This document shows positions 39,319 through 40,559 of a stretch of 64,000 bases of DNA, piece after piece. The notes beneath the pieces are model-generated. The model searched no databases, had not been told where the DNA came from, and worked only from the letters and a program-made list of their open reading frames with translations. Location: the IMG/VR virus record IMGVR_UViG_3300021420_000014. One strand, 5' to 3'. This DNA is from a virus. A program made the position numbers and the translations under genes. The number at the start of each line of letters is the position of its first letter. The stretch's first letter is position 1.

Positions 39319-39983
39319 GTGTCCTCGCTGTCGTGACTGCTAAGGATGCGAGGCGGTAGGCTGGCCGCCTCTCGATGACTATAACTATAAACGCATTAGG
39401 AGCACACAGGGCGATAATTCCGCGTAGGCTATCTTTGAGCGATGAAGGAATTTCGTGATCATGCAGCAAGGCCGCCTCGACAGCCTTCGGGCATCCGGAG
39501 ATCCTCACGTCTGTAATCATCAGGTGTTCCCTCAGCTCAGGATCAGATGGATATTGTATGAGTGCACCGCGAAGATACCATTGAACGGCTAGGTGTCAAT
39601 AAATTTCGCCTTGTGTGCGCTATCGAACTGATCCGCGCACTGCCCACGACTACCACCAATTACCACGGAATAATTTTTATTCGTATTGGAAACAAAGAAG
39701 TTCCTATAGTGACTACCGTTGATTACCGGGAGGTGGCATGAGCAAAACAGAGTGGCAACCGGCACGCTGCGTCATAGTTCACGGAAACGTGGCACTACGG
39801 GAAAGATTAGCCGATGAAAAGGATCCAGATTGGCGAATAAAGATTTATCGTGTACGGCTGAACACGACTGGCGTAGTGAACCAGCATTGCGATGGGCGGC
39901 TCTTGGATATCCATCCCGATGATGCGCCGCCTGGCTATTACTGGGCTTGTGAGCACGAAATGCTGACCGACTGAGGCGTTAAG

Positions 39984-40057
39984 TGGAGCGTCTGACGGGA
40001 GTTGAACCCGTGCCCCTCGGACTAGAAGCCGAGTGCTCTACGCTGAGCTACAGACGC
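39984..40057 (-). tRNA. atypical tRNA with 8-nt anticodon loop CUUCUAGU
   Basis: GCGTCTG/CAGACGC acceptor, GCTC/GAGC D-stem, CTCGG/CCGAG anticodon stem, ACGGG-TTCAACT-CCCGT T-arm, T-CCA end. Confidence 0.85.
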
Positions 40058-40521
40058 TCTGAAAGTGGCGCAGGGGCTCGGATTGAACCGTAGTCGTCGA
40101 TATCAGGCGACGCCCCTGCATTGGCGCGCCCGGCGAGATTCGAACTCGCTCCGTCTGCTTTAGGGGCAGCCGTGCTTGCCGTTGTCACTACGGGCGCGCG
40201 GTAAACTCGATAGCACTGCAACAGCTCGCGCTCGGGCGAATCTGCATCGAGCGGTGCGGTTGCAATGGCAGTCAATCCGAAATCGTGATCAGGTTCGTAC
40301 CATGGATAGTGAGGGATTCCGTGTGCTTGAAGCTTTCGCAATACGCGCTCAAGTGCTCGGACGTTCGGCATCCCGATAGCAACGAGATTCGGCGTGCCTG
40401 GATCGCCACGGAGTTGCGCAAGCTTGAAGCTTGAGTGGTTAGTTTGTACGAGAATGTGTTCAAAAGCAGGAAGGTCGGTCCGGAAGAACAAATAACGGTA
40501 TTGCTCTTGTACCTATGTCAT
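40048..40521 (-). CDS. Pth2-like peptidyl-tRNA hydrolase with in-frame TAG at codon 3
   Basis: MT*VQEQYRYLFFRTDL..QTNH..LVAI..WYEPD..GLTAIATAP. Confidence 0.7.
40066..40119 (-). ncRNA. D-armless tRNA-like RNA (54 nt)
   Basis: GCAGGGG/CCCCTGC-G-CCA, GTCGCC-TGATATC-GACGAC hairpin, CGG-TTCAAT-CCG T-like arm. Confidence 0.7.
40122..40197 (-). tRNA. putative amber suppressor tRNA (anticodon CUA)
   Basis: GCGCCCG/CGGGCGC-G-CCA; CTGC-CCCTAAA-GCAG with central CTA at 40163-40161; GCGAG-TTCGAAT-CTCGC. Confidence 0.85.
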
Positions 40522-40531
40522 AGCGACTTTG

Positions 40532-40559
40532 ATTCTACTTGATGGCAATCCTAAGTCAA
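40532..40559 (-). promoter_or_regulatory. sigma70-type promoter of pth/tRNA unit
   Basis: TTGACT-N16-TAGAAT, 10 nt upstream of ATG (near-leaderless). Confidence 0.6.

Follow-up and report, generated by a model that had tools for sequence, protein, structure and literature searches.

In a group of soil phages, the 3′ extension of a protein gene contains a functionally linked tRNA gene; the protein gene is a stop-less open reading frame (ORF) for a Pth2-like domain, and the arrangement is inherited clade-wide. The anatomy of this cassette and its conservation, as described here, can be stated with near certainty. The functional reading that we prefer, in which translation and tRNA processing would be competing fates of a single transcript, is drawn from sequence comparison and is offered more tentatively, its chance of being right lying a little short of even.

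The cassette was identified in the window, here meaning the whole 64,000-nucleotide stretch of virus record IMGVR_UViG_3300021420_000014, where it occupies 620 bp from promoter to second tRNA (Table 1). The window is itself part of a soil phage contig of ~165 kb. The predicted promoter is separated by 10 nt from an ATG at 40521, and the Pth2-like ORF opens as ATG ACA TAG GTA. With the TAG translated as a residue, the domain is 108 residues long with a C-terminus of ...YRVYR, and the ORF possesses no stop of its own, the final domain codon being a CGC (40200–40198) from which the frame stays open, as an initial annotation of the sequence had claimed for the end of the hydrolase domain. The first position of the CUA tRNA (40197) is a first codon position directly after this CGC, and the tRNA lies entirely within the 3′ extension of the ORF, in the sense orientation, in a frame that is uninterrupted from 40521 to 40048. 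Only the used frame is open through this tRNA, the other two being closed by a TAG at tRNA nucleotides 8–10 and a TAA at nucleotides 36–38. The minihelix that follows has a predicted folding energy of −24.2 kcal/mol (z = −2.6). The first in-frame stop of the ORF is a TAG (40050–40048, the end given by the ORF list at 40048) that forms nucleotides 8–10 of the second CUA tRNA, and the TAA that would end the frame upon suppression is 2 nt beyond the CCA of the same tRNA; the initial annotation had traced the frame through the CUA tRNA and the mini-tRNA to these two stops, and all of its coordinates were right. The counterpart of the second CUA tRNA in the close homolog L001 (L001:3312-3386) has a normal 7-nt loop, UUCUAGG, and the extra anticodon-loop base in the window is thus a local feature.

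Table 1. Position and basis of the cassette features in the window, listed in the direction of transcription.
Feature	Position	Strand	Basis
Predicted sigma-70-type promoter, TTGACT-16 nt-TAGAAT	40532..40559	-	consensus scan, 10/12 matches
Pth2-like domain ORF, 108 codons, codon 3 an in-frame TAG (40515-40513)	40198..40521	-	translation
tRNA, anticodon CUA (amber suppressor), encoded CCA	40122..40197	-	ARAGORN; Rfam RF00005, 46.9 bits
tRNA-like minihelix, 54 nt, 7-bp acceptor stem GCAGGGG/CCCCTGC, internal hairpin, GCCA	40066..40119	-	fold
Second CUA-type tRNA, 8-nt anticodon loop CUUCUAGU	39984..40057	-	ARAGORN 'tcta'; Rfam 60.2 bits
TAA ending the frame if TAG 40050-40048 is suppressed	39979..39981	-	translation with TAG as residue

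The close homologs of the window ORF (64–86% identity; L001/L002, L003/L005/L006, L004, and P0005) all run from the domain into the tRNA without a stop, while one further member of the same close group (L007) is on a contig that ends within the domain, leaving the junction unreadable. The codon before the first element in relatives is CGT, CAC or TAT. In the three close homologs for which DNA was available, the ORF stop is a UGA in the minihelix loop, 8 codons past the CCA. The same UGA in the window (40105–40103) is shifted out of frame by a 1-nt deletion (GGGGC-GTCG in the alignment), so the run of the window frame through the minihelix and into the third RNA element is a local accident. A frame maintained open over all three RNA genes was rejected as an explanation, since past the first element the other frames run at least as far, and the minihelix loop UGA as a selected terminator was likewise unsupported, being in frame in 5 of 9 lineages. 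A more distant relative with low GC (L008; 52% identity) reverses this order, with the minihelix ahead of the tRNA; it again has no stop at the junction, and its ORF crosses the minihelix and ends in the tRNA D-loop. In two other loci (L030 and L031) the frame is open for 100 codons over three or four RNA elements (P0024 and P0013). In P0017 (212 aa), the open frame seems to continue as a fusion with the protein-coding gene that follows.

Five cultured jumbo phages (Arash, fHe-Yen9-04, ME3, GAP32, and RsoM2USA; 30–42% identity) resemble the cassette in carrying a member of the same family with an early UAG followed by A. Unlike the cassette, their ORFs end at an ordinary stop 2–16 codons past the domain with no abutting tRNA, the nearest tRNA being hundreds of bases off or absent from the stretch inspected. 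A scan of genome contigs found no relative, and a scan of viral contigs with the first alignment returned one locus.

A profile search of the family recovered 1114 representatives, and among the best 150 of these, 137 had a complete domain end, 103 of them with tails of at least 20 residues. The tripeptide VAQ, which is the phase-0 translation of the tRNA D-arm GTAGCTCAG, occurred in the tails of 45 of the 137 (16-fold enrichment over the domain parts), and for four VAQ-type proteins the DNA confirmed that the tails are tRNA genes. An unbiased sample of IMG/VR was obtained using a degenerate DNA pattern derived from the N-terminal half of the domain and blind to the 3′ end, which yielded 127 loci with a family member, 78 of them scorable. 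The majority (54 of 78) were normal members with a median tail of 4 codons, 50 of the 54 having tails of ≤10 codons (93%, compared to 41% expected for unselected sequence). A tRNA-like element abutted the domain (≤19 nt from its end) in 19 of the 78 loci; 15 ORFs crossed the whole element, one stopped inside a minihelix (L022), and three stopped before the element (L025, L033, and L110). The run-on members had a median tail of 42 codons, and long tails were strongly associated with an abutting element (15/19 compared to 6/59 without one; Fisher p = 3e-8, n = 78). As tails outside the clade are far shorter than the unselected expectation, they are normally disfavoured, a constraint from which the clade has escaped, and such an escape would be expected if the tail is rarely translated. 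Short ‘elements’ reported by the acceptor-stem scan in L106, L073, and L110 were taken as false positives (control rate of ~5%). An ungated sub-clade (L119, L093, L041, L102, and L134) has tails of 21–33 codons in which no tRNA-like element was found, and these tails may be a real C-terminal extension.

In a tree of the domain, all 20 run-on rows (the 15 loci, the window clade, and L008) fell in one clade of 24 (SH-aLRT 98), with two normal members (L020 and L021) in basal positions and two exceptions (L022 and L025) within. Because the state maps to this one supported clade, the stop-less junction is old and maintained rather than a recent loss, and because the wider family uses ordinary stops (median 4 codons), it is a trait of the clade and not a requirement of the family; as far as the sampled sequences extend, it is confined to the clade of the window. 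Function does not depend on the stop-less design, since ordinary stops serve the wider family and L025, and a stop within a minihelix serves L022. The initial annotation had asked whether homologs also lack a stop before the tRNA, and all close homologs along with 15 further IMG/VR loci do; homologs with a normal stop, which it regarded as a sign of recent accidental loss, were absent among the close homologs and present in the wider family, cultured jumbo phages included. Recent accidental loss is thus contradicted for the junction, which is clade-wide; the run beyond the first tRNA follows from the 1-nt deletion. What survives of that earlier reading is an old and retained stop-less junction, while the continuation of the frame across the mini-tRNA and on to the third tRNA is specific to the window.

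The nested tRNAs look functional. Among nine orthologs of the nested tRNA, both-side (compensatory) changes were present at 13 of 17 base pairs and the CUA anticodon was kept, a pattern indicating that these tRNAs are under tRNA-type selection and are intact genes rather than remnants. The linker from domain to element was 0, 3, 6, 9 or 15 nt in 13 of 15 lineages, and in the two out-of-phase lineages the elements are open in that phase too. The used frame was open in all of the first elements, with stops in 13 of 19 elements for each of the other two phases (binomial p = 3e-5, uncorrected for shared descent and thus overstating independence, because the lineages are related). None of the tRNA-abutting loci ended at the TAG (nucleotides 8–10) or the anticodon-loop TAA of the tRNA itself. 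The junction has been kept although the first element varies (suppressor tRNA, minihelix, and other tRNAs) and the linker length has changed. Both observations, along with the short tails outside the clade, favour selection on the layout. Evidence in the other direction comes from the shared descent of the lineages, from the frame beyond the first element, which is not specially open and has no conserved terminator, and from the linkers, which are so short (~24 codons summed over lineages) that absence of stops from them is expected by chance alone (P about 0.3).

Minihelices of 45–82 nt that resemble tRNAs (7-bp acceptor stem, internal hairpin, and NCCA) accompany the suppressor tRNA in most clade members, lying downstream of the tRNA in some loci and separating it from the ORF in others. 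Beyond the window (Table 1), they were located at L008:492-546 and, in L030, L017, L069, L078, and L146, just past the first tRNA, and many share a conserved loop motif (UUGAGUG or UGAUAU). For L136 and for L125/L141/L147, the first nested element was called by ARAGORN as tRNA-Arg(UCU) or tRNA-Thr(AGU) and not as a CUA tRNA; the loop in L136 contains UCUAA and its anticodon register may be unusual.

The early in-frame TAG of the Pth2-like ORF, here termed the UAG gate, is conserved among relatives, and a UAG-A gate was present in 13 of the 15 run-on loci, in the window clade, and in L008. The base after the gate was A in all of the 17 TAG-gated loci listed and in L001, L003, L004, L007, and L008, while the gate in the window (40513–40515) is a TAG-G rather than a TAG-A. 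Together, the ATG and the gate form a minigene of 2–7 codons in the window and its relatives, an arrangement that recalls the lambda bar minigenes, which load Pth (PMC8012679). The promoter in L001, L003, and L004 has the form TTGACA-17-GAYAAT with the ATG 6–7 nt further on (conserved spans L001:2805-2841, L003:2805-2841, L004:346-383, and 40519–40559 in the window). The cassette mRNA is probably leaderless or nearly so, because the ATG is only 6–10 nt past the −10 box; L008 has a GAGGGG ribosome-binding site instead of the leaderless layout.

Phages using code 15, in which TAG is read as glutamine (bioRxiv 10.1101/2021.08.26.457843), resemble the window in having a phage-encoded suppressor tRNA and an in-frame TAG. 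Unlike in those phages, TAG terminates 15 of 73 long frames in the window and is not enriched in frame (12 early-TAG candidates compared to 17 for TGA). Global recoding of TAG was therefore rejected, and the phage is taken to use the standard code.

The protein was assigned to a fold by structure rather than by sequence family. An AlphaFold2 model of the domain based on 43 relatives (pLDDT 94.5) places the last strand at residue ~106, and the best PDB matches in Foldseek were all Pth2 (3erj, 1q7s, 2zv3, 1xty, and 1wn2; TM 0.65–0.74, probability 1.00). No Pfam family matched the protein at E ≤ 1, PF01981 included, and PHROGs returned only phrog_34073, which has no assigned function. The family profile matched a PDB peptidyl-tRNA hydrolase weakly (E = 0.048), with a 2-residue gap opposite ‘tgKK’ (the GK loop), and the family conserves an EPD..G.T segment (Asp/Thr-like). 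Catalysis in Pth2 depends on the GK-loop Lys and on an Asp within the D-x-G-x-T segment. By the model, the domain adopts a Pth2-like fold that is already complete where the tRNA begins, and its enzyme activity is putative. Searches of the genes neighbouring the cassette gave no informative Pfam or PHROG matches.

The layout across the whole clade suggests that protein synthesis and tRNA maturation compete for one transcript. Under this reading, a single near-leaderless transcript would carry the UAG gate, the stop-less Pth2-like domain, the suppressor tRNA, the minihelix, and the second CUA tRNA, and it would meet one of two fates. In the first, the tRNA (or a minihelix) would fold, RNase P would cut at its 5′ end (40198/40197), and the tRNA would mature, leaving behind an upstream mRNA that finishes on its last sense codon, lacks a stop, and has no protection at its 3′ end, and from which ribosomes would need rescue. 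In the second, ribosomes that had passed the UAG gate would reach the tRNA first, unfold it transiently, and make a junk-tailed protein. The gate would tie the second fate to the suppressor, such that the outputs of protein and tRNA would be negatively coupled to each other and both would be coupled to the suppressor level. Cleavage by RNase P, what then happens to the non-stop product, and any resulting feedback are plausible steps that we infer from the layout. The CCA-encoding, closely spaced elements of bacterial tRNA operons are ordinary RNase P substrates, and the three RNA elements of the window match them, because all encode CCA with spacings of 2–8 nt. Counting against the proposal of competing fates, the used frame shows no excess of openness over the other two once the first element is passed, and the termination site is not conserved; moreover, a non-stop product is normally tagged and degraded, which would be an odd route to the expression of an enzyme.

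The layout could instead be a tolerated by-product, in which an ancestral deletion or cassette insertion put the tRNA flush with the domain, the stop was lost, and a harmless junk tail resulted, the state then persisting because there is no neutral space at the junction in which another stop could arise. We consider this unlikely, while granting it a real chance. A single clade holds the state, so one origin is possible, and within linkers of 0–6 codons a chance stop would be improbable anyway; canonical tRNAs contain few stop triplets, making long open frames easy to come by; the termination site drifts (the 1-nt deletion in the window and the varying location of the stop among relatives); and L022 and L025 show that reversion is viable. 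The tails of median 4 codons outside the clade, however, argue that tails are not neutral, the phase of the junction and the open first element are kept despite differing linkers and first elements, and the layout survives a swap in the order of the elements (L008, L143, L028, and L031 compared to the window clade). A version in which translational occlusion alone matters, and which we regard as distinctly unlikely, would have abundant suppressor carry ribosomes past the UAG gate to unfold the nascent tRNA and lower its maturation, a homeostat of suppressor level for which the fate of the protein is secondary. Such a circuit would need both of the conserved features, the early UAG-A gate and an ORF open across the first element, yet a stop 2–14 nt before the tRNA, which would largely abolish the effect, does occur (L025, L110, and L033), and as ribosome transit is brief the tRNA could refold afterwards.

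The E. coli arfA mRNA is made non-stop by an RNase III cut or by premature termination, and its product escapes only if trans-translation fails (PMC8012679). The cassette is similar to arfA in that the useful product would come from an mRNA truncated in frame, with the tail of the full-length form being dispensable, and it differs in that RNase P acting on a tRNA would make the cut in place of RNase III acting on a hairpin, and in that the protein, Pth2-like in fold, is not a recruiter of RF2. By analogy, and in line with the arfA comparison made in the initial annotation, a strict gate of this kind can be envisaged, where essentially all of the Pth2-like protein would be made from RNase P-cut non-stop mRNA and would be tmRNA-tagged and destroyed, accumulating only under saturated trans-translation to report and relieve rescue overload. 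This we judge improbable. A cut at the junction would give a clean, complete domain where run-through adds 30–100 junk residues, a parallel to the active truncated ArfA compared to the unstable full-length ArfA (PMC8012679); normal termination within the first element occurs in no lineage except L022; and a suppressor tRNA should raise the non-stop load of the host. The absence of a Pfam PTH2 match, the deletion of the GK-bearing loop of canonical Pth2 in the profile alignment, and the existence of relatives with normal stops all stand against it. It is similarly doubtful that the cassette acts as an arfA-style sentinel, with clean enzyme surviving only when the suppressor is active and trans-translation is saturated by suppressor-induced read-through; if true, the phage would carry a backup that responds to the state of ribosome rescue, and RNase P would for the first time be known to programme a non-stop mRNA in nature. 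That the layout reflects an artefact or a different code (an assembly error, a pseudogene, sense codons acting as a stop, or global TAG recoding) is scarcely credible, as nothing but the odd layout speaks for it, whereas the layout is repeated in independent assemblies from different samples, TAG ends 15 of 73 long frames under the standard code, the domain is intact with a confident fold, and the tRNA is directly preceded by CGC rather than by T or TA, which excludes a stop completed by tailing.

Such tailing is known from the tRNA punctuation of mitochondria, where mRNAs end in U or UA and are completed to UAA by polyadenylation. The cassette would share with this system an upstream mRNA whose 3′ end is set by tRNA excision, with no spacer, and departs from it in ending with CGC, a junction codon that leaves no stop to be completed by tailing. 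A closer likeness is found in the Alphaproteobacteria, where selC (tRNA-Sec) is nested in a 3′ extension of selB (Mukai 2021, Int J Mol Sci 22:4605, PMC8124441), and for which the author proposed that tRNA processing would yield a non-stop mRNA, with the protein and the tRNA as alternative products (PMC8124441). In both cases a complete, sense-oriented recoding tRNA lies in the C-terminal extension of a gene of the same pathway and is conserved in relatives, and both are known from bioinformatics alone. The cassette differs in belonging to phages rather than a bacterium, in carrying an amber suppressor rather than tRNA-Sec, in crossing up to three RNA elements, and in that a minihelix can replace the tRNA at the junction.

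The selC–selB pair, likewise predicted, was the one published precedent found for a tRNA fully nested in a bacterial-type ORF. The cassette family is a second, larger, and more varied natural series (~15 lineages, with the suppressor tRNA, a minihelix or another tRNA at the junction), in which, unlike in selC–selB, the nested tRNA is predicted to read the very stop codon that gates the ORF around it. As such, it bears on the possible use of RNase P to set where a coding sequence ends, on the relationship between translation and tRNA maturation on one RNA, and on how a costly suppressor may be curbed. For annotation, translated tRNA genes account for the long and unusual C-termini that many database entries of the Pth2-like family show. 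The cassette often lies within larger phage tRNA clusters, including one with His, Phe, and Pro tRNAs upstream (L031:1-1000) and one in L027 with about seven more Rfam tRNA matches ~1.2–2.2 kb upstream of the Pth2-like gene.
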